DNA of 64,000 nucleotides from a virus: positions 89,712 through 153,711 of IMG/VR virus record IMGVR_UViG_3300046318_000491. One strand, 5' to 3'. The position numbers and the translations under genes were made by a program. Positions 44,235 through 56,079 of this stretch are shown piece after piece. Positions within the stretch are counted from its first letter, which is position 1; every line of letters begins with the position of its first letter. The notes beneath the pieces were generated by a model, which worked only from the letters and a program-made list of their open reading frames with translations, searched no databases and was not told the origin of the DNA.

Positions 44235-44508
44235 TTGAATCCCCAATCCATAAACCACTCTGGCTTATGTTCTAAGTTTACCAATACCCACTGACATTTT
44301 CAACTTCTCACCGTGCGTGTTTCTTCGTTCGTTCGTTGTTGCGGTATACGCAGAAAAAATAAATACCCACCGCACGCACCAAAATTATTCGAGCGAGCAA
44401 CAAAAAACCCGATAGCACAATCACTATCGGGTCTCTCGGAGAAAGAAACGAGGGGGCGTTTCCGTTATCTCTGTCGCTACCAAAGGGGGATAAGGTAGCG
44501 AGTTCTAT

Positions 44509-44736
44509 TTAGTTGTTGGGGTCGTAGTCGGCGTAGTAGTCGTCTCGCAAGTCTTCCTTGCTAGGCACTTCGACTTCTAGGACTGAACGGCACTTAGGAC
44601 ATTCGGCTGTCACAGTAGTTCCGTAGTCGTCTGTCTGACCGTCTAGTTCCATTTCTTCGTCGCAGTGTGAGCAGAAAAACCAAGCGGTGTAATCGGTAGA
44701 GTCAATCCCTGACCCTTTCATTGAAAACCCAGGCAT
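44509..44736 (-). CDS. Zinc-ribbon microprotein
   Basis: CSHC...CPKC. Confidence 0.7.
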   Translation of the reverse strand: MPGFSMKGSGIDSTDYTAWFFCSHCDEEMELDGQTDDYGTTVTAECPKCRSVLEVEVPSKEDLRDDYYADYDPNN

Positions 44737-44888
44737 TAGTGGTTCATCTCAAATCCTGCTGAATACTCGACGCCCGCTGGAGTTGGGTCGTAGCAATCCT
44801 GACATACGCCACCTGCTACATAGTATTCGGCAACCATTGGGTTGCTCTCTGTAATCTTGCTCTCGCAGTTTGGACACTTCTCTGACAT
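44736..44888 (-). CDS. Zinc-ribbon microprotein (50 aa)
   Basis: Read by hand: MSEKCPNC...CQDC...; RBS AAGGGG. Confidence 0.65.
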   Translation of the reverse strand: MSEKCPNCESKITESNPMVAEYYVAGGVCQDCYDPTPAGVEYSAGFEMNH

Positions 44889-45119
44889 CTGAAACCCCTT
44901 GTCTGCCAACCCCTTGTTGGCTACAAGAACTACATTACAGGATACCTACGACAAACGCAAATCGAAACGCCGAAAACTTTTCCGTGTCGCCAACCCCGCG
45001 AGCGCGTTCACAGAAAAAATAAATACCCCTCGGCAGACGAGAAACTCGGCGAGCAAGGCAAAAAGAAAACCCCCGCATTTCTGCGAGGGTTGTCTTGAAA
45101 CTGTATCTGATTTGGCGTA

Positions 45120-45344
45120 TTACTCGCCTACGATTCTGTCTATCAAGCGTGAGACCTGCGGTGAGAATGTAAGCATTAGGGCAATGATTACGCCTAGCCC
45201 CAAGCCATTCTGGAAAACTTCTTCACTTGAAACGGTAGGCTCTGCCCCTGCGATTACCAACCATAGGTAGGCAAGCGTGTAAACCCCTGCGACTACTGGA
45301 ATAGAGATAATCCCTACAACTGCTCTGCGAATGTAAAACTTCAT
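45120..45344 (-). CDS. Two-TM membrane microprotein
   Basis: Hydrophobic helices; own promoter and RBS. Confidence 0.7.
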   Translation of the reverse strand: MKFYIRRAVVGIISIPVVAGVYTLAYLWLVIAGAEPTVSSEEVFQNGLGLGVIIALMLTFSPQVSRLIDRIVGE

Positions 45345-45422
45345 TTTGAATCCCCTTTTCTAGTTAGGCTTTCTAACTACTTACAGTTTACCCTACAACT
45401 TTTTGAATGTCAAGCATTTCTT

Positions 45423-45587
45423 TTAGTAGTTCTCATTGACATACTCAACCAGTTCATCTTGCGACTTACCAGCACGAATCAAGTCCTTGACTTCTTCGTC
45501 TTCGGCAAGCAACTCAAACATAACCGTAGTCTCACCTGACAAGACAATCAACTTCTCGAACAACGATAGTTCTCTATTTAGAATCAT
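45423..45587 (-). CDS. Microprotein (54 aa)
   Basis: Start revised to MILNREL (RBS AAAGGGG). Confidence 0.65.
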   Translation of the reverse strand: MILNRELSLFEKLIVLSGETTVMFELLAEDEEVKDLIRAGKSQDELVEYVNENY

Positions 45588-45774
45588 TTGAATCCCCTTT
45601 GTTTGGATAGTCATACTTTATCACCAAGCACCGACATTTTCAACTTCCAACGAACCCGTGTCATCTCGCTGTCGCCGGCAGTCAGAAAAAATAAATACCC
45701 TCGGATTTCGAGAAAAAGATTTCGCGCAAACGCAAAAAAAAACGCCTGCCTTTCGGCAAGCGCTTCTTTTTAGT

Positions 45775-45903
45775 TCAACTACATAACTGTCCAGCAAACC
45801 AACTATCAAACTCGCTCTCGCAGTCCTCGCATAAAGGGTGAACGGTTGTTATGTCTTCGACTTCTATCGCCGTGTCACATTGGTAACACTCTGTCTTAGC
45901 CAT
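45775..45903 (-). CDS. Zinc-ribbon microprotein (42 aa)
   Basis: Read by hand: MAKTECYQC...LCEDC...; TAATG coupling. Confidence 0.6.
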   Translation of the reverse strand: MAKTECYQCDTAIEVEDITTVHPLCEDCESEFDSWFAGQLCS

Positions 45904-46151
45904 TAGTCAATACCCCAACAATCGGCACACTTCGGAACAGTAAACCCTGAACCATTTGCCTTGTTGTTCTCGTAGTGGAGGTGGAGGCTCTCGTCTAGCA
46001 CAATCGTCTTATCACATTGACGGCACGACACTTCGTAAGTGTTCTCAGTCATCATTCGTGAACGGTTATACATCTTCGAGATTTCGTAGTTGATTTCGTC
46101 ATCTGACATTTCGACGGCAGACTTACTCAAGTTCGTAGTCCGTGTCATCAA
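45903..46151 (-). CDS. Zinc-ribbon small protein
   Basis: CRQC...CADC; start uncertain. Confidence 0.6.
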   Translation of the reverse strand: MMTRTTNLSKSAVEMSDDEINYEISKMYNRSRMMTENTYEVSCRQCDKTIVLDESLHLHYENNKANGSGFTVPKCADCWGID

Positions 46152-46404
46152 GCCAAGTTTCTAGACGGTGTCCGTCGATTACTGCCCACGCTGGAGCGGC
46201 AGTCAATCCCTTGTAACCCACGCCATCTGGCATACTAATCAAACGATTCGGCTCGCCATTGTTGTAATGCTCAATCGCTTCAACGCAAACTGGAACCATT
46301 GACAACGGCACAGGTGGAAAAAAGTTGCCACGCAAGTGCCAAGTGATTTGTTCTTCTAGTGGAATACCAGTTTCGGCGATTCCTTCGGCATACATTCTAC
46401 CCAT
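46123..46404 (-). CDS. Hypothetical protein
   Basis: 93 aa with RBS AGGGG and a promoter. Confidence 0.7.
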   Translation of the reverse strand: MGRMYAEGIAETGIPLEEQITWHLRGNFFPPVPLSMVPVCVEAIEHYNNGEPNRLISMPDGVGYKGLTAAPAWAVIDGHRLETWLDDTDYELE

Positions 46405-46677
46405 TTACTTCCCCTAATCTTTCGGTGTAGCCCTATTGCTACATCTGTAATCTTACTCTACTTCCAACGACTTCGCAACTCTCGTTCGTTGTGTGTCCCG
46501 CAGCTCGCAGAAAAAATAAATACCGCCTACACAAACAAAAATCGAAAAGCAAAACGGTAAAAGAAAAAGTGGTATCAGACGGGGGGTCCAATACCACTTC
46601 TCTTTGAGGCGAGCGAAAGGGGGATAACTCTCGCCTCCATCAGTTAGGGAGGTTACTCGACCTAACTAACTTCTACT

Positions 46678-47013
46678 CTACACTAAAGTTTTTGAAAACT
46701 CGTCGTGTTCAACATCTTGATACGTGTAAACGCCTGTGTCTGCGTTTACGAATACAGTTGGAGCATCTGCCCACTCCGAGCCAGTCACCTTGCCTGTGTA
46801 AATCCCGAATGACAGTTCGCCATCATAGTTGCCAATCTTTGCGAACTCGTAGAAAATCTGTGCGGTGAGATAACTAGGGTCGCCAATACGCCCTGAACGC
46901 TCTAGCACGCTACGAACAGCAAGAATGTTGTCATCGCCTGACCAATGTCCATAAAATACAACTGGAATCTCGAACTGCTCTGACGAGACTTCGATAAATG
47001 CTCTGTTTCCCAT
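46678..47013 (-). CDS. Hypothetical protein
   Basis: Start revised to MGNRAFI; Y.HW.G and D..YLTA motifs. Confidence 0.7.
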   Translation of the reverse strand: MGNRAFIEVSSEQFEIPVVFYGHWSGDDNILAVRSVLERSGRIGDPSYLTAQIFYEFAKIGNYDGELSFGIYTGKVTGSEWADAPTVFVNADTGVYTYQDVEHDEFSKTLV

Positions 47014-49721: not shown

Positions 49722-50579
49722 TTACGCCTCGCTCTCCTCGTCCAATGTCGGGAACAACTTTTGACCCGTGTTCTCGTCCACGACCCAGAATGAATCTGAA
49801 TCCTCTGCGGTTAGTTCGTCCAACTTGTCTTGGGCAACTTCCCACGCACCCTCCGCTGAAGTTGCTCGCACAATGTATCGGCGTTCAACGACAACAACGA
49901 AGTCCGTTTCCTGACGAGGGCAGTCCTCGTAAAAGTCTTCCTCGTCTCCGTTTTCGCAAGCCCAGCAGGCTCGACCCAATGCGTCATAGTCGGCGTGGCT
50001 CTGCGGAATGTCCCACTCCCTCGTCATGATTAGCGACTTTGTAGGCACGCCGTTCTCGTCTACATCATCTCCGTCTGACGAAGTGAACTCCGCACCCCAG
50101 CCCTGTTCCTCCTCGCAAGAAAAGTCGAACGAAAGTTCTGGGTGCTGTCGAACGATAGCCGTGAATACCTGCTCTGGGATTCCCCATGCCGTTTCAAACG
50201 AGTAGCCCAAGTAAGCCGCTTTATCGTCCGTCATGTCCGTCAAGTTCACGCTACCAGCGTCCCACTTCACGCCCCAGTTGCTGACATTCCAGTCATACCA
50301 GCCGTCTGATTCGTGTTTCATAGCAATAGCCATGCGGTCTTCCATGCTCATCTCGGCGTATCCGTCTGGCTTGTAATCGCTCGCCCCGAAGTAGCGTGGC
50401 TTGTTCTCTGGTTCAATGAAGTTCCAGAACGATAGCGGTGAGGCGTTCTCGTCCTTGTATTCAAGCACGCCGTCCTCGCTGATTCCGCTAGGGGCAATCT
50501 TGCTCGCCTTATCACGAAACGCAATCAGGTCTTTAGCCGTGCCGTTTACATTCATGTTGTTGTAGACCCAGTTAGGCAT
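49722..50579 (-). CDS. DUF1281/YubB-like ferredoxin-fold protein
   Basis: MPNWVYN, WYDWN..NWGVKWD and FETAW..P motifs. Confidence 0.75.
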   Translation of the reverse strand: MPNWVYNNMNVNGTAKDLIAFRDKASKIAPSGISEDGVLEYKDENASPLSFWNFIEPENKPRYFGASDYKPDGYAEMSMEDRMAIAMKHESDGWYDWNVSNWGVKWDAGSVNLTDMTDDKAAYLGYSFETAWGIPEQVFTAIVRQHPELSFDFSCEEEQGWGAEFTSSDGDDVDENGVPTKSLIMTREWDIPQSHADYDALGRACWACENGDEEDFYEDCPRQETDFVVVVERRYIVRATSAEGAWEVAQDKLDELTAEDSDSFWVVDENTGQKLFPTLDEESEA

Positions 50580-50581
50580 TT

Positions 50582-50875
50582 CTACCACGCACCCTTGTCT
50601 ACATCAAGCCTGTGAGCGTCAATCATTTCATTCACAGTTTCACCTGCGAACATCTTGGCTACCGCCAATCGTGTTGCGAGTTCTGGCTCGTTCAACTTCT
50701 GTGCCAACTTCTCTGCCAACGCCAGCACCTTATACATGGTTGGGTCGCAGTAGCCATCTCGGCAGTAGTCCTCTACCAGCACGCCAATCGTGGCAAGTGC
50801 CATGCCAGCAATCTCGTGGTCGTCTAGTTCCATGTGGTCTAGTTCGTCCATGTTTCCTGAACAGTTATTACACAT
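50582..50875 (-). CDS. Hypothetical protein
   Basis: Start revised to MCNNCSG (RBS AAAGGGG). Confidence 0.65.
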   Translation of the reverse strand: MCNNCSGNMDELDHMELDDHEIAGMALATIGVLVEDYCRDGYCDPTMYKVLALAEKLAQKLNEPELATRLAVAKMFAGETVNEMIDAHRLDVDKGAW

Positions 50876-51199
50876 TTGAAATCCCCTTTCTTGGAATCGT
50901 ATTAGAACTTTACCATAGACTTCCGACAAATACAAACACCATTCGTTAGAAGTTTCTCTTTCTTTTTTGCGACTCGGAACTGACAGAAAAAATAAATACC
51001 ACCCCGCTGAAAAAAAATCCCGCTGAACTTTCCACGAGACCAATCCGTGTTCGTTGGAAGTGGAATGGCATTTTGTAATCGCACGAGCAAACAAAAAACC
51101 CCCAACAATCCGTGAGGACTATCGGGGGCTAAGTGGTGTCCACTAGCGAACCAACGAAAGGACGAACAAACGCAATCCGCTAGTGGAACTCTGCTTCCC

Positions 51200-52954
51200 C
51201 TAAACGCTCGCTTTCATGAGTGCGTCCGTTGCGCTCTTGCCAATCGCAAACGCAATCTCCTTGGTCTCCAGTCCGTCTAAGACCACGCCGTTTCCACCGA
51301 CCAACTGCGCACCTAAACCACGCCCACATTCCTTTGGCGTAATCCAGAGAACTGCCACGCCGTTTTCCTTACACAAGCGAGCCGTCTCTTTCGCTCGGTT
51401 AGTTTCCTCGCCTGTGTAATGTCCGTCTGAAACGACAACCAACAAACGCACGCCGTTTCCGTTGGTCAAGTCAAGTGCGCCGTCAAGTGCTTTGAACGCC
51501 TTGCCAAAAAGTTCCGTTCCGTCTGGTGCGGTATAGACCGAAACCTTTTCCAATCGCTGACCGACCTTGAGAGTCGGGAATACGCCAGAGCCATAGTAGA
51601 CCATAGCGGTCTTGGCTTGAACTCGGCGACCTGCTTCGCCAAGAACCCAAGCCGTAGTTGCCATGCTCTCCATAGCCGAACCCATAGAACCGCTAATGTC
51701 CACCATGATTCCGATAGAGAGTGTCGGGTCGTCTGTGTGCTTGCGTGTCTTGTGCTTCCATGCTGGATTCAAGTCTCGCACGCCCTTGGCTTTCAACGCT
51801 TCGTTCTGAACAAGCACTCGTGCCTTTAGGCGACCAACTGGCTCGTGAGACTTGATTACAGTTTCCGAGCGTTCACGATACTTTGCCTTTTCCAACATCT
51901 GACCAATCTTGACTGCGCTTGCTCGCTCGTGTCCAGTTGGGTTGCGCTGTTCTTGTAGGCGTGAACGAGAACCAGAACCCTCTGACCCAGTTGCCTTGGC
52001 AAAAACTTCTTTGGCTTCCTGCTTCGATTCGCTCTGACGCTTCGATTCGCTCTGACGCTCTTTGGCTTCCTGCTTCCAATCCTCTTGGGTCTGCTGGTCT
52101 GACAAGTCCATAGACGCTGACATGGCTGTCTCACCTGCGTCTGATTCCATAGCGTCCATGAGTTCCTTTAGAAACTCTGGCACGCCACCCTGACCTGATT
52201 CGCCCTCTGGGTCTGCCTCTTTCAAAAGGTCGTTCCACTTTTCGGCGAGCGCAATCCCACGAGCAATCTCGCTCGTGTGTAGCGACTGGAACTCCACCCA
52301 GATAGAACGCAAGTTGTTGAACAAGTCCATGCCAATCACTTCGACAACCTTGTCGAAAGTTGATTTCACATCTGACAACTTGACAACTCCTGCGTCCACT
52401 CGTGCCAACGCTAATGCTGATACATGAGCGCACGCACGAATCTCTGTAAGATTCGCTATGGCTTCCTCGTCTACTCCCTGTAATGCGAGACCAAGTGCTG
52501 ACGAGCGCAAGAACAACTGATTCTCTGGCATTTGAATAACGCCCTTGCGTTCGATTCGTGATTCGTCTAGCAACTGAAAAGTGTTGAATACCTTTTCGTC
52601 CATAGACTTTAGGGCTGTCTTATCCCAGAGTGAGTAGCGAGCGTGAAGTGCCTCGTGATAAATCACGCCAGTTGGCTCTGCCCAATCGTATTGGGTTGTT
52701 CGCTCTGTAAAGTCGCCAACCATTTTCGGGGTCGTTGCTTTACCAAACGCCTGTGGAATGTTGATTTCGATTTCGGCTGTGTCTGTAAGGAAACAAGCAA
52801 GTGCCACGCCCATACCTGCGTCCTCACCTGCGTAAACTGCCAAGTCGTTTCGACCTGACCATGCGTTTACAACTGTGCCAATCTCTGCGCAAGTCTTTAG
52901 CCACTCTGGGGTAGTTGCGCTGGTGCGTGTTGCTAGTCGTGAAAAGTGAGACAT
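51200..52954 (-). CDS. CobT-like metallopeptidase-motif + VWA domain protein
   Basis: HEALH, E.RIE, MIDAS DISGSM and VVSDG. Confidence 0.85.
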   Translation of the reverse strand: MSHFSRLATRTSATTPEWLKTCAEIGTVVNAWSGRNDLAVYAGEDAGMGVALACFLTDTAEIEINIPQAFGKATTPKMVGDFTERTTQYDWAEPTGVIYHEALHARYSLWDKTALKSMDEKVFNTFQLLDESRIERKGVIQMPENQLFLRSSALGLALQGVDEEAIANLTEIRACAHVSALALARVDAGVVKLSDVKSTFDKVVEVIGMDLFNNLRSIWVEFQSLHTSEIARGIALAEKWNDLLKEADPEGESGQGGVPEFLKELMDAMESDAGETAMSASMDLSDQQTQEDWKQEAKERQSESKRQSESKQEAKEVFAKATGSEGSGSRSRLQEQRNPTGHERASAVKIGQMLEKAKYRERSETVIKSHEPVGRLKARVLVQNEALKAKGVRDLNPAWKHKTRKHTDDPTLSIGIMVDISGSMGSAMESMATTAWVLGEAGRRVQAKTAMVYYGSGVFPTLKVGQRLEKVSVYTAPDGTELFGKAFKALDGALDLTNGNGVRLLVVVSDGHYTGEETNRAKETARLCKENGVAVLWITPKECGRGLGAQLVGGNGVVLDGLETKEIAFAIGKSATDALMKASV

Positions 52955-53060
52955 GATTTCGTCCTTTCGTTGTCTCTTGCTTTGTTGCTAAATCCAACCT
53001 TACCAGAGTTGGTAGGGGAACGCAAGTTCATTCCCCTACCTTTTCTAGTAGAACGGATTA

Positions 53061-54089
53061 CTAGATTTTCGCTGGCATTACTGCTTCGCCGAAAACTCGT
53101 GTGAATACATCTGCCACGACTGACCTGTCAATCTCTGGTGCGCTGGCAAGTAGATTCTGAATCGCCCACTTTGAACCAAACAAGTTGGTCAAGTCTCGGA
53201 ACGCAAGCAACTCTCGGAACTGTGGAGACCATGAAGTCTCACCGTTCGACTGCTTCTTGGCAAGATTCTGTGAAGCCGAAACTGCTGTCGCTGGAACGCC
53301 CAACTTCTTAGCCAATGCCCAGTCTGTTGTCATTTCAACCTGAACGCTGAATCGTGATAGCAACGCTTCTGAAAGTCGAACTCCAGGTGCGTTAGGGTTG
53401 GTCGCACCAATGACGAAAAATCCGTCCTTTGCCTTGACTGTGCCTCGCTCTGGATTCTGGGTAATGGTGATTTCCTTGCGTCCGTCCATGAGACCATAAA
53501 CGGCAGACAAGACCTTTGGGTCAATGAGACCAATCTCGTCAATCAAAAGAACCTTGCCCTCCTCTGCTGACTTGACCAATGCGCCGTCCACCCATTCAAA
53601 AGAACCACTTGGGGTCTGAACATAGCCACCAATGAAGTCTGAAAGTTCGGTGTCGCCTGAACCAAGAACTGTGTAAAGGTCGTCTGGGAACGCACCCTCA
53701 ACGCACGCTGTCTTACCAGTTCCAGGTGCGCCATAGAGTAGAACATACTGACCTGCGCCACGAGCCTTGCGTAGAACCTCAATGTCTGTGTGGTCGCCCC
53801 AAGGACGAGCGTAGTAGTCCTGACCATTTGGTCGAACATACTTCTCTGCCCCTGCTAATGCTTCCACATTCACATTCCCTCTAGTAGACTTTGGCTTCGG
53901 AGTGCCAGTTCCGATTTTAGCACGAACATTTGCTCGTGCGCTGGCTGGCATAAGTGAGTCCAAACCTGCTGGAACTGCGCTTGGCTTTTCGTGCTGAATC
54001 GCAACGCCATAAATCAGACTTGATAGGTCTGGGTATAGCGTGTCAATAGTTTCCTCTGGTGCTGTTGCTGGTGCTGTAATGGTAGTCAT
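53061..54089 (-). CDS. MoxR/CbbQ/NorQ-type AAA+ ATPase
   Basis: GAPGTGKT, LLIDE, GATNP and ALLSRF; adjacent to the VWA gene. Confidence 0.9.
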   Translation of the reverse strand: MTTITAPATAPEETIDTLYPDLSSLIYGVAIQHEKPSAVPAGLDSLMPASARANVRAKIGTGTPKPKSTRGNVNVEALAGAEKYVRPNGQDYYARPWGDHTDIEVLRKARGAGQYVLLYGAPGTGKTACVEGAFPDDLYTVLGSGDTELSDFIGGYVQTPSGSFEWVDGALVKSAEEGKVLLIDEIGLIDPKVLSAVYGLMDGRKEITITQNPERGTVKAKDGFFVIGATNPNAPGVRLSEALLSRFSVQVEMTTDWALAKKLGVPATAVSASQNLAKKQSNGETSWSPQFRELLAFRDLTNLFGSKWAIQNLLASAPEIDRSVVADVFTRVFGEAVMPAKI

Positions 54090-54113
54090 GATTTTTCCGT
54101 CCTTTTTCTCTGA

Positions 54114-54650
54114 CTAAACTGTGGCTGGTGCTGGAGTGATAAACAACTTCTCTGGGAATCCAAGGGCAACTCGTGTCTTTTGGATTCGGCGTAGTGCGCT
54201 CGCTGGTGCTTTGTAATCACGAACATCTGTGAAATCTACATCTGTCATTTCAAAAACGATAGGGCGATTTCCACGCAAGGTCTTTAGACCATACATCATT
54301 TGACGCTTTAGAGTTCGCTCTACCTGCTCTGCCATGTTCAACGCCTTGTCCTCTGGTGCGAGAGTAGCCATTTCCTTGTCAATGCGAATACGATTCATGC
54401 GCCACTGCTTTCGTGGAGACCACTCTGAAACTGTGCGAGAAACAATCGCCATGTCTACTGGCTCGCCCTTTTCGTTAGTTCCCTGTGGGGTAATAAGAAT
54501 CTGGGTTGTCTGGTCTCCCTTGTCATTTGGAAACTCTAGGTAGATTCCCCTGCCCATAATACGAGGCTTATTTGAAGTCTCGCCTAGTGCTACTGCTTCT
54601 GCGACTTCTGGGGCTAGTTCCCCAAAAGTTCCCAATGAATCTGGATTCAT
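54114..54650 (-). CDS. Hypothetical protein
   Basis: Start revised to MNPDSLG (RBS GAAAGGA). Confidence 0.7.
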   Translation of the reverse strand: MNPDSLGTFGELAPEVAEAVALGETSNKPRIMGRGIYLEFPNDKGDQTTQILITPQGTNEKGEPVDMAIVSRTVSEWSPRKQWRMNRIRIDKEMATLAPEDKALNMAEQVERTLKRQMMYGLKTLRGNRPIVFEMTDVDFTDVRDYKAPASALRRIQKTRVALGFPEKLFITPAPATV

Positions 54651-54753
54651 GATTCGTCCTTTCAATCTGTGTCGCTGGATTTTTCCAACAAGTTCAACTT
54701 ACCATAGTTCGTTGGAAGTTGTCAAGTTCATTCCAAACTATTTTTTGGCGTGT

Positions 54754-55287
54754 CTAAAAGTGGAAGTCCACTGGGATTAGAAACTGGTTGTCTGGGCGTG
54801 TGGCTACTCGCGTTGTGAAGTAGCGCAAGTTTCCTGTCCAGTTCTCTATGTCATAGATACCTGTGTCGCAAGTCCATTCATCATCTAGGATTTGCGCCAA
54901 CTTCTTGGTAGCCCACAAGTCCATGTTGAGACCACTTGCGTAAGGGTCATAAGAATAGGTAGTTAGGTCAATCGCCTTTGACTTGTATTCACGAATGGAA
55001 GCCATTCGTTCCTCTAGGTAGCGAGTGATTACTTCCTCTGCTCGTGCTGGGTCATCTGAATAGCGCAAGTGGTTGGGATTAGTATCTGGGGTCTTGAACT
55101 CCCCATTCTCATTCACATCACCAAAGACTGCGCCAGACCAACGTCCTGCGAAGTTTAGGGAGTCTGAGTTGCTGGCGTTATGCCAATCAGACCAGCGAGG
55201 CTCGCCATCGCTGAAGTGGCTTTCGACATTACTAAACGCTTCCTCTGGGGTCTCTGCCTCCACGAGGATAATCTGGCATACGTGCAT
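54754..55287 (-). CDS. Hypothetical phage protein
   Basis: WSDW..GRWSG...VDFHF pattern; promoter and RBS present. Confidence 0.7.
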   Translation of the reverse strand: MHVCQIILVEAETPEEAFSNVESHFSDGEPRWSDWHNASNSDSLNFAGRWSGAVFGDVNENGEFKTPDTNPNHLRYSDDPARAEEVITRYLEERMASIREYKSKAIDLTTYSYDPYASGLNMDLWATKKLAQILDDEWTCDTGIYDIENWTGNLRYFTTRVATRPDNQFLIPVDFHF

Positions 55288-55393
55288 TTTTCGTCCTTTC
55301 AGTTATAAAACTTACTTGAACTTTACCAGATACCTCTGACATTTTCAAATCGCCGCGCTCGCGGTATTCGTGTCAGAAAAAATAAATACCTGA

Positions 55394-55690
55394 CTACTCG
55401 TCGAATTCCAACGGGTCATACTCTTCCGTTGAATCGAAGATGTCCGATAGAGGTGTAACTGCTGAGTCTGGTTCTAATACATTGCTGGCGCATTCGGTGC
55501 ACACCAACCACTGGGTCTCATCGTCTAGCGCTACAGCAAATGGGAAGTAGGCACCCGCTATGTGTCCGACGTCTTCAAAGCATGCAGCACATTCAGCACC
55601 GTCGAGGTCTTCAATCTCTAACAGTCCTGCTTGTATACCGTGGTCGACATCGGTGTTGTTTTCCATCACGTGGAGTTCTACGTTTCTCAT
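55394..55690 (-). CDS. Acidic zinc-finger protein (leaderless)
   Basis: CAAC...CTEC; -10 TAACAT lies 6 nt upstream of the ATG. Confidence 0.65.
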   Translation of the reverse strand: MRNVELHVMENNTDVDHGIQAGLLEIEDLDGAECAACFEDVGHIAGAYFPFAVALDDETQWLVCTECASNVLEPDSAVTPLSDIFDSTEEYDPLEFDE

Positions 55691-55770
55691 AGGGTTATGT
55701 TACCCCGTTCTCCAGATGGTGATTCGGGAGAAGCGCTCGCCGCAGTCAAGAGCACGCCGTTCGTTAGAAG

Positions 55771-56079
55771 TTAGCGGATCTTGCTGAGCTGCTCGTCAAC
55801 GTTCTTCTTCCGTCGAGGTGGGAGGAGCTTCGTTAGAAGTTGCAGCGGGGTGAGCTTCTCATCAGTTGGGACCGAGCCGTATTTGTGTAGAAGCTTCAAG
55901 AGCAGGCCGGCAATGAACAGGTCATCACTGAATGCCATCCATGGGAAGAGAAGATCGAACGGATCGATCGGGATCACCAGGTATGTGAGACATATAGTCG
56001 CGATGACTTTAACCCACCAGGGTGCCCGTTGGAACTGAGCAATGTACTGACGAAGAGCATTCTTGATTCTAGTACGCAT
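55771..56079 (-). CDS. YkvA/DUF1232-like membrane protein
   Basis: YLVIPID..D...P.....DD motif. Confidence 0.65.
   Translation of the reverse strand: MRTRIKNALRQYIAQFQRAPWWVKVIATICLTYLVIPIDPFDLLFPWMAFSDDLFIAGLLLKLLHKYGSVPTDEKLTPLQLLTKLLPPRRKKNVDEQLSKIR

Follow-up and report, generated by a model that had tools for sequence, protein, structure and literature searches.

A hairpin loop in the 3'UTR of a phage operon has changed together with the operon's ribosome-binding sites in about 50 related phages, and the mRNA very probably holds back its own translation

A four-gene early cassette of an uncultured lake phage (IMG/VR record IMGVR_UViG_3300046318_000491, 153.7 kb, with terminal repeats) ends in a hairpin whose loop is complementary to the ribosome-binding sites (RBSs) of the genes that precede it. 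The window analyzed here is the right-hand 64 kb of that record (64,000 nucleotides (nt), positions 89,712 to 153,711), in which all genes lie on the minus strand, and the hairpin resides in a 3' untranslated region (3'UTR) behind the last gene of the cassette, which encodes a CobT-like protein and is called cobT below. A 15-nt segment of the loop is the exact complement of the cobT RBS, and loop and RBS have changed together in ~50 related phages, so that the mRNA very probably acts as a brake on its own translation. Pairing between the two RNA segments would occlude the Shine-Dalgarno site and the spacer (in gene 1 of the cassette, the AUG as well) and is likely to repress initiation, possibly with duplex-dependent cleavage; this mechanism is proposed from comparative sequence evidence.

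The preliminary description of this DNA had placed a 10-base-pair (bp) stem between the stop codon of the last gene and the terminator, and the stem is present there when the minus strand is read. The 5' arm UCCACUAGCG (51187-51178) lies 12 nt past the cobT stop codon and is followed by the loop (51177-51149) and the 3' arm CGCUAGUGGA (51148-51139). A GC-rich stem and a U-run, the hallmarks of an intrinsic terminator, are found at the end of the unit, and the 131-nt tail folds as two hairpins with z = -5.3 vs shuffled sequences. In a strain ~7% diverged, represented by contigs from runs X22/X21 over window positions 50902-51887, changes occur at 51104, 51114, 51130, 51135, and 51194, and no change falls within the hairpin at 51139-51187.

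The exact complementarity of the loop to the RBS of its own gene (52972-52958), also claimed by the preliminary description, is borne out with 0 mismatches. A pattern search of the window returns 0-mismatch matches to the loop 15-mer only at the loop itself and at the cobT RBS, with 0.19 matches expected when two mismatches are allowed. The core of the sequence also serves as the RBS of the genes starting at 55287 and 54650 (both GAAAGGACGAA) and at 54089 (AAAGGACGG), whereas the other cassettes mostly use AAGGGGAUUCAAAUG-type sites; both statements had been made before and hold. On the coding strand of the 153.7-kb genome, the 11-mer GAAAGGACGAA has three copies, located just upstream of the ATGs of gene 1, gene 2, and cobT, and its complement has a single copy, located in the hairpin loop.

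The loop was compared with 62 start regions of the window by duplex energy and opening energies rather than by RNAcofold, because a contact between a loop and a linear segment is a pseudoknot for RNAcofold. Ranked by duplex energy, cobT came first (-27.7 kcal/mol) and gene 1 second (-26.0 kcal/mol), the median being -12.6 kcal/mol (standard deviation 4.7), and the values with the opening costs of both partners included were -13.1 kcal/mol for cobT and -14.4 kcal/mol for gene 1. The pairing with gene 1 consists of 11 bp, a one-base bulge, and 7 bp, covers the AUG, and lies in a 5'UTR of ~26 nt, so the 5' and 3'UTRs of the operon mRNA are literally complementary. Gene 2 and cobS, the ATPase gene preceding cobT, match the loop less well than cobT and gene 1 do. 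In this window and in two relatives (L003 and L009), the loop pairs with each of the four RBSs of the cassette.

The CobT-like gene lies within an array of short expression cassettes that are separated by the box GGTATTTATTTTTTCTG (Table 1). Between the boxes at 55390 and 51000, the minus strand holds one promoter-like site and one terminator, and the genes starting at 55287, 54650, 54089, and 52954 are therefore read as one transcription unit. The four-gene block of the preliminary description is thus one promoter-to-terminator unit in which each RBS can pair with the loop.

Table 1. Features of the four-gene cassette, in window coordinates.
Feature	Position	Strand	Remarks
17-bp array box, upstream cassette border	55374..55390	-	GGTATTTATTTTTTCTG
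Sigma-70-like promoter match	55320..55348	-	TTGAAA-17-TAAAGT with TG; sole such match on the minus strand in the cassette
Gene 1 start region	55283..55300	-	GAAAGGACGAA + AAAUGCA; short 5'UTR
Gene 1	54754..55287	-	177 aa; no family match
Gene 2 RBS	54653..54663	-	GAAAGGACGAA; ATG at 54650
Gene 2	54114..54650	-	178 aa; no family match
ATPase (cobS) RBS	54097..54105	-	AAAGGACGG; pairs with the loop via one G.U
Gene 3, cobS	53061..54089	-	AAA_5 / CobS-MoxR-like ATPase, 342 aa
cobT RBS	52958..52972	-	CAACGAAAGGACGAA; exact complement of the loop 15-mer; ends 3 nt before ATG 52954
Gene 4, CobT-like	51200..52954	-	584 aa; last in the cassette; stop TAG 51202-51200
3'UTR hairpin	51139..51187	-	10-bp arms (13 bp including G.U and A-U extensions); 29-nt loop
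Anti-RBS 15-mer in the loop	51152..51166	-	UUCGUCCUUUCGUUG; 11-nt core UUCGUCCUUUC kept in L003 and L009
Intrinsic terminator	51087..51130	-	15-bp stem 51130-51097, then U-run TTTTTTGTTT; the cassette's only one on this strand
Next 17-bp array box, downstream cassette border	50984..51000	-	

Protein-guided scans of IMG/VR and JGI metagenomes yielded 2 + 42 + 44 loci related to this cassette at 39-78% identity. Across these relatives, the hairpin behind cobT is homologous: its outer stem surrounds three parts, namely the conserved motif GGAUUG(A)GC, an inner stem, and a large loop, and the terminator hairpin comes after it. The stem itself covaries, with compensatory double changes in 11 of the 17 pairs of the RNAalifold consensus, and one or both hairpin loops of the relatives are pyrimidine-rich (UCCUUUC or CCCCCCUUUC). 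The location of the anti-RBS varies by clade between the first hairpin and the terminator loop, and the target is kept. Among GenBank phages, blastn returned one weak coding match, to DSL-LC01, a metagenome-assembled Actinomycetia phage (PMC10611076), in which the layout is alike, the RBS is AAAGGACAAAC, the loop is UUGUCCUUU, and the match between them is 9 nt. An exact scan of IMG/VR with the 18-nt loop core was useless for finding relatives, because it recovered only the L003 contig and two unrelated chance matches (L004 and L006); in L004, an unrelated GC-rich viral contig, the 18-mer lies at 788-820 in a hairpin with a 6-bp stem just upstream of an opposite-strand gene, which is taken as a coincidence.

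The motif GG(A/U)UUG(A)GC is nearly invariant, and in more than 20 loci it stands 20-32 nt past the stop of cobT. In the window it occupies 51170-51178 on the minus strand, where the loop base is a helix that the motif forms and that contains a UU bulge, and its conservation at the sequence level could reflect a recognition site for a nuclease or another protein. Further copies of GG(A/U)UUGAGC in L025, at +1002 and +2134, lie in coding sequence and are not elements of this kind.

Co-variation of loop and RBS in relatives had been named beforehand as the check for a regulatory pairing, and it is found. For dereplicated loci, the measure was the longest exact complement between the RBS of a locus (-25 to +5) and a 3'UTR. 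In 31 loci it averaged 9.06 nt for own pairs and 6.89 nt for cross-locus pairs, the observed mean was reached in none of 20,000 permutations, and the duplex energies were -20.9 kcal/mol for own vs -17.3 kcal/mol for cross pairs. With IMG/VR loci added, the averages over 53 loci were 8.74 nt (own), 6.49 nt (cross), and 5.76 nt (shuffled UTRs), again with 0 of 50,000 permutations reaching the observed mean, and complements of at least 9 nt were present in 24 of the 53 own pairs vs 7% of cross pairs. The 3'UTR was the unique best complement to the cobT RBS within the ~6.8-kb locus in 18 of 31 loci.

The loops contain a segment complementary to the cobT RBS of the same locus, in which the lineage-specific flanks of that RBS are mirrored as well (Table 2), and at least 10 distinct clade-specific pair states can be placed on the CobT tree. 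Two of the differences between states are one-base insertions or deletions that are compensated on both sides: GGACGAA/UUCGUCC vs GGACAA/UUGUCC, and GGGAAAGCA/UGCUUUCCC vs GGGAAGCA/UGCUUCCC. The number of distinct pair states is a stronger argument than the permutation p-values.

Table 2. RBS segments in related loci and the length of their exact complement in the 3'UTR of the same locus.
RBS segment	Exact complement	Locus
CGAAAGGACGAA	12 nt	L009
ACGAAAGGACAA	12 nt	L046
UUUUGGAAAGG	11 nt	L011
AAACAGAAAGGU	12 nt	L016
AACGAAAGGG	10 nt	L018
GGGAAAGCAA	10 nt	L019
GGGAAGCA	8 nt	L017, L061
AAAGGAUAAGAAA	13 nt	L033
GAAAGGAAC	9 nt	L021
CUUUUAGAAAGGG	13 nt	L053
GAAAGGAACGGAA	13 nt	L062
UUGACGGAAGG	11 nt	L078
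AAAUGGGA, across the cobT start codon	8 nt	L024/L032 clade

cobT is not the only target in the relatives; their loops have matches to the ATPase RBS, too, and to those of genes farther upstream in the cassette. In L047 and L043, the loop matches the cobS RBS (14 and 11 nt, respectively) and not that of cobT; the cobT RBS overlaps the cobS stop codon in these loci, and the two genes are therefore probably coupled in translation. What is conserved is thus the complementarity of a tail loop to start regions within the operon, and not strictly to the gene that bears it. In one clade (L024, L032, L029/L030, and L071-73), the terminator loop UCCCAUUU complements AAAUGGGA over the cobT start codon, not the Shine-Dalgarno site, and the first hairpin loop matches the ATPase RBS GGACGGAAAC.

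Several observations weigh against a self-addressed pairing. The exact match is only 7-8 nt long in about half of the loci, which is barely beyond the shared Shine-Dalgarno core; the cobT RBS is unmatched in L047, L043, and L074-76; and complementarity between tail and RBS was not seen in L082-L091, the IMG/VR loci with the most distant CobT-like proteins (39-42% identity). The element thus seems to be restricted to a single sub-family of the phages. In a few lineages the best target is the first gene of the next cassette (11 nt in L025, for example), which is more readily explained by action in trans than by a strict self-loop. Because the loci are phylogenetically related, their independence is overstated in the permutation p-values, although close relatives are scored as "cross" pairs, which makes the test conservative. 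A 15-bp helix within a 29-nt loop would be sterically strained, and the real duplex may be ~10-12 bp. Finally, metatranscriptome X14 contributes low-depth contigs that carry parts of the cassette and leave 51052-51811, and hence the 3'UTR, uncovered.

In the mechanism proposed here, the early cassette would be transcribed from the promoter at ~55348-55320 to the terminator at 51130-51097 as one mRNA, and the stable hairpin ahead of the terminator would present an unpaired complement of the Shine-Dalgarno sites and spacers of the cassette. The inhibitor would be made only once the 4.3-kb unit had been transcribed to its end. The loop could then base-pair with the start regions, best with cobT (15 bp) and gene 1 (11 + 7 bp), either inside one molecule by 5'-3' looping, from one mRNA copy to another, or in the form of a ~100-nt fragment processed from the 3' end, and the duplex would block 30S binding and might be a substrate for a double-strand-specific RNase. 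The outcome would be a self-addressed brake on translation of the operon. A plausible consequence is that each finished mRNA would be initiated only a limited number of times, or that the message would repress itself in trans in a dose-dependent way. The preliminary description had already interpreted the loop as a 3'UTR element directed against its own gene block, an interpretation that the co-variation of loop and RBS supports; we infer pairing in the cell, repression or timing of translation, possible release of a separate small RNA, and the mode of action, whether in cis or in trans.

An alternative, which we consider unlikely, is that the hairpin is a generic small RNA (sRNA) module with anti-Shine-Dalgarno loops, similar to 6C RNA, that mainly targets host mRNAs or many phage genes, the match to its own RBS being a by-product of a shared RBS consensus. 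The one or two C-rich loops of the relatives (CCCCCCUUUC) would suit such a module, as would two other cassettes of the phage that end in hairpins with UUAUCCCCCUUU loops and lack an extended complement in the phage, the motif AAAGGACAA of DSL-LC01, which is the RBS of many neighboring genes, and the downstream gene that is the best target in L025. A shared consensus does not readily account for the 11-mer, which in this genome is private to the cassette that bears the loop, or for the flanks beyond the Shine-Dalgarno core, which co-vary with the cobT RBS; nor would host targets be expected to produce lineage-specific changes that mirror the spacers of the phage.

Less probable still is a positive role of the pairing, in which contact between the 5' and 3' ends circularizes the mRNA and stabilizes it by shielding it from 5' exonuclease or endonuclease. 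There is a precedent in the B. subtilis hbs mRNA, in which an interaction between the 5' and 3'UTRs affects stability (PMC5737220), and the gene 1 target does lie in the ~26-nt 5'UTR. However, the duplex lies over the Shine-Dalgarno site, and in gene 1 and in the L024/L032 clade over the start codon too, which is hard to square with continued initiation, and three of the four targets are internal RBSs rather than the 5' end. The last alternative, that the hairpin is a 3' stabilizer, a part of the terminator, or a protein-binding site with complementarity that arose by chance or is left over from an inverted duplication, is very improbable: extra hairpins ahead of terminators are common and pyrimidine-rich loops partly match purine-rich RBSs anyway (6.5 nt across loci), but it is strongly disfavored by the covariation. 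Also against it are a 29-nt loop that matches a ~35-nt window over an exact 15-mer (probability of the order of 1e-6), an own-pair mean that was reached in none of 50,000 permutations, repeated compensated changes, including insertions and deletions, in separate clades, and an anti-RBS that shifts between hairpin 1 and the terminator loop across clades with its target retained.

Two further readings of the loop were rejected. The loop is not an RBS for a plus-strand gene, there being no start codon in reach and the nearest plus-strand open reading frame lying 50 nt off. Mimicry of the 3' tail of 16S rRNA by loop and RBS is limited to the UCCUUUC core, and it was rejected because the co-varying flanks (ACGAA, ACAA, UAAGAAA, GGGAAAGCAA, and others) would not fit.

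Self-directed repression through a 3'UTR has a known counterpart in the icaR mRNA of Staphylococcus aureus, in which an anti-Shine-Dalgarno motif of the 3'UTR is reported to base-pair with the transcript's own Shine-Dalgarno region, which prevents the initiation complex from forming and creates a substrate for RNase III (PMC3868564). Functionally, icaR is the closest known system. As in icaR, the anti-Shine-Dalgarno sequence lies within the 3'UTR of the target's transcript (the loop is flanked by the stop at 51200 and the terminator at 51130-51097), and its match to that transcript's Shine-Dalgarno region is evolutionarily maintained (15 nt exact; co-variation over 53 loci). Unlike icaR, the phage mRNA is polycistronic, and of its four matched RBSs three are internal; its 3'UTR is ~110 nt long vs ~390 nt; its anti-RBS resides in a hairpin loop and reaches into the spacer over 11-15 bp, compared with the 7-nt UCCCCUG of icaR; and its support is covariation, not experiment, with no sequence homology between the two.

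In loop chemistry, the element is closest to sRNAs with C-rich loops, namely 6C (PMC6486639) and RNAIII and the Rsa RNAs (PMC2790875). The 6C sRNA of Actinobacteria (Rfam RF01066) is reported to bind G-rich or Shine-Dalgarno regions of several mRNAs through C-rich hairpin loops with no chaperone (PMC6486639). The phage element resembles 6C in its host group, which is probably Actinobacteria, and in the two C-rich loops of several relatives, and differs from it in residing in an mRNA 3'UTR rather than in a free-standing gene and in having its own operon as target. The 6C pattern of two stem-loops with runs of about six C in their loops is not found here, where one large loop carries UCCUUUC (UUCGUCCUUUC) and the terminator has a tetraloop. 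The 6C covariance model gave no match in window 50000-56000 (E <= 1) or 44380-46700 (E <= 10), in six relatives (E <= 0.1), or in the 3'UTR of L013 (E <= 10), and no Rfam 15 family scored at or near its gathering score on the hairpin. Weak Rfam matches elsewhere in the window (PYLIS_2, rdlD, tfoR, and others) are far below gathering scores; that of PYLIS_2, at 50242-50354 (-), with 27 bits vs a gathering score of 36 and E = 0.003, lies within a coding region and is probably due to chance.

The RNAIII and Rsa sRNAs of S. aureus carry UCCC loop motifs and are trans-acting, chromosomal, and directed at many targets (PMC2790875, PMC2837412). They share with the phage element an unpaired C/U-rich hairpin loop that acts as a seed against Shine-Dalgarno regions, and differ from it in having neither a self-addressed operon nor a private RBS code. 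Enterobacterial sRNAs derived from 3'UTRs, such as MicL and CpxQ, have unrelated mRNAs as targets and require Hfq and RNase E (10.1101/341578). In these sRNAs, as here, an mRNA 3' end supplies a seed region and its own terminator; in contrast, the target here would be the parent mRNA, and release of a fragment is only putative. In phage lambda, retroregulation of int by sib involves cleavage of a 3' hairpin by RNase III followed by decay from the 3' end. Both would be phage 3' hairpins that lower expression of upstream genes post-transcriptionally, but the element described here is proposed to work by RBS pairing. The literature searches, of incomplete coverage, turned up no phage mRNA whose tail is directed at the RBSs of the same message. 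The element would belong to a known form of regulation, anti-Shine-Dalgarno pairing by a 3'UTR, and what appears new is its extension to a whole operon, its occurrence in a phage, and its private RBS code.

The preliminary description labeled the last gene of the cassette "VWA", a weak designation, as the C-terminal match to Pfam VWA (E = 0.015) is below the cut-off, and the homologue in the GenBank relative DSL-LC01 is annotated as a cobalamin biosynthesis (CobT-like) protein. The N-terminal half of the CobT-like protein contains an invariant YHEALHA (HExxH-like) motif at residues ~99-106, and the weak VWA domain contains a DISGSM MIDAS-like motif. Between the ATPase stop codon and the cobT RBS lies a second hairpin with a 10-bp stem (GGUAGGGGAA/UUCCCCUACC, 53011-53040 (-)) and without a U-run, which has counterparts at the equivalent position in L003 and DSL-LC01; the operon may be split there by processing or attenuation.

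Two other cassette tails of the window, at 46567-46667 and 44407-44501 (-), consist of multiple hairpins with the C-rich loops UUAUCCCCCUUU, GCCCCCUC, and GACCCCCCGU; exact complements of these loops are absent from the phage, the nearest sequence being the AAGGGGAU type of RBS used by four array genes. In the coding strand of the whole genome, CCTTTC occurs 12 times vs ~37 expected and GAAAGG 27 times, and runs of six C or six G are likewise rare. Words resembling anti-Shine-Dalgarno sequences appear to be avoided inside the messages of this phage.

Taken more broadly, the element may be part of a private "RBS address" system of lake actinophages, in which an early operon carries unusual extended RBSs and a matching anti-RBS in its mRNA tail, the full-length transcript silences itself as a burst limiter or timer, and RBS and anti-RBS co-evolve as lock and key across the phage family; we put this forward tentatively, with confidence a little short of even. 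The many independent compensated changes give strong comparative support for the pairing from the sequence record alone, and the pairing would affect an entire operon of four genes in a freshwater phage family that is widespread. The finding suggests that unusual extended RBSs, where they occur in the early genes of phages, can be interpreted as addresses for regulatory RNAs, and it provides a search rule for more cases, namely mirror-image motifs between operon tails and RBSs. If the proposed address system is real, private RBS addresses would constitute a general, operon-wide layer of phage gene control, beyond a single-gene curiosity.

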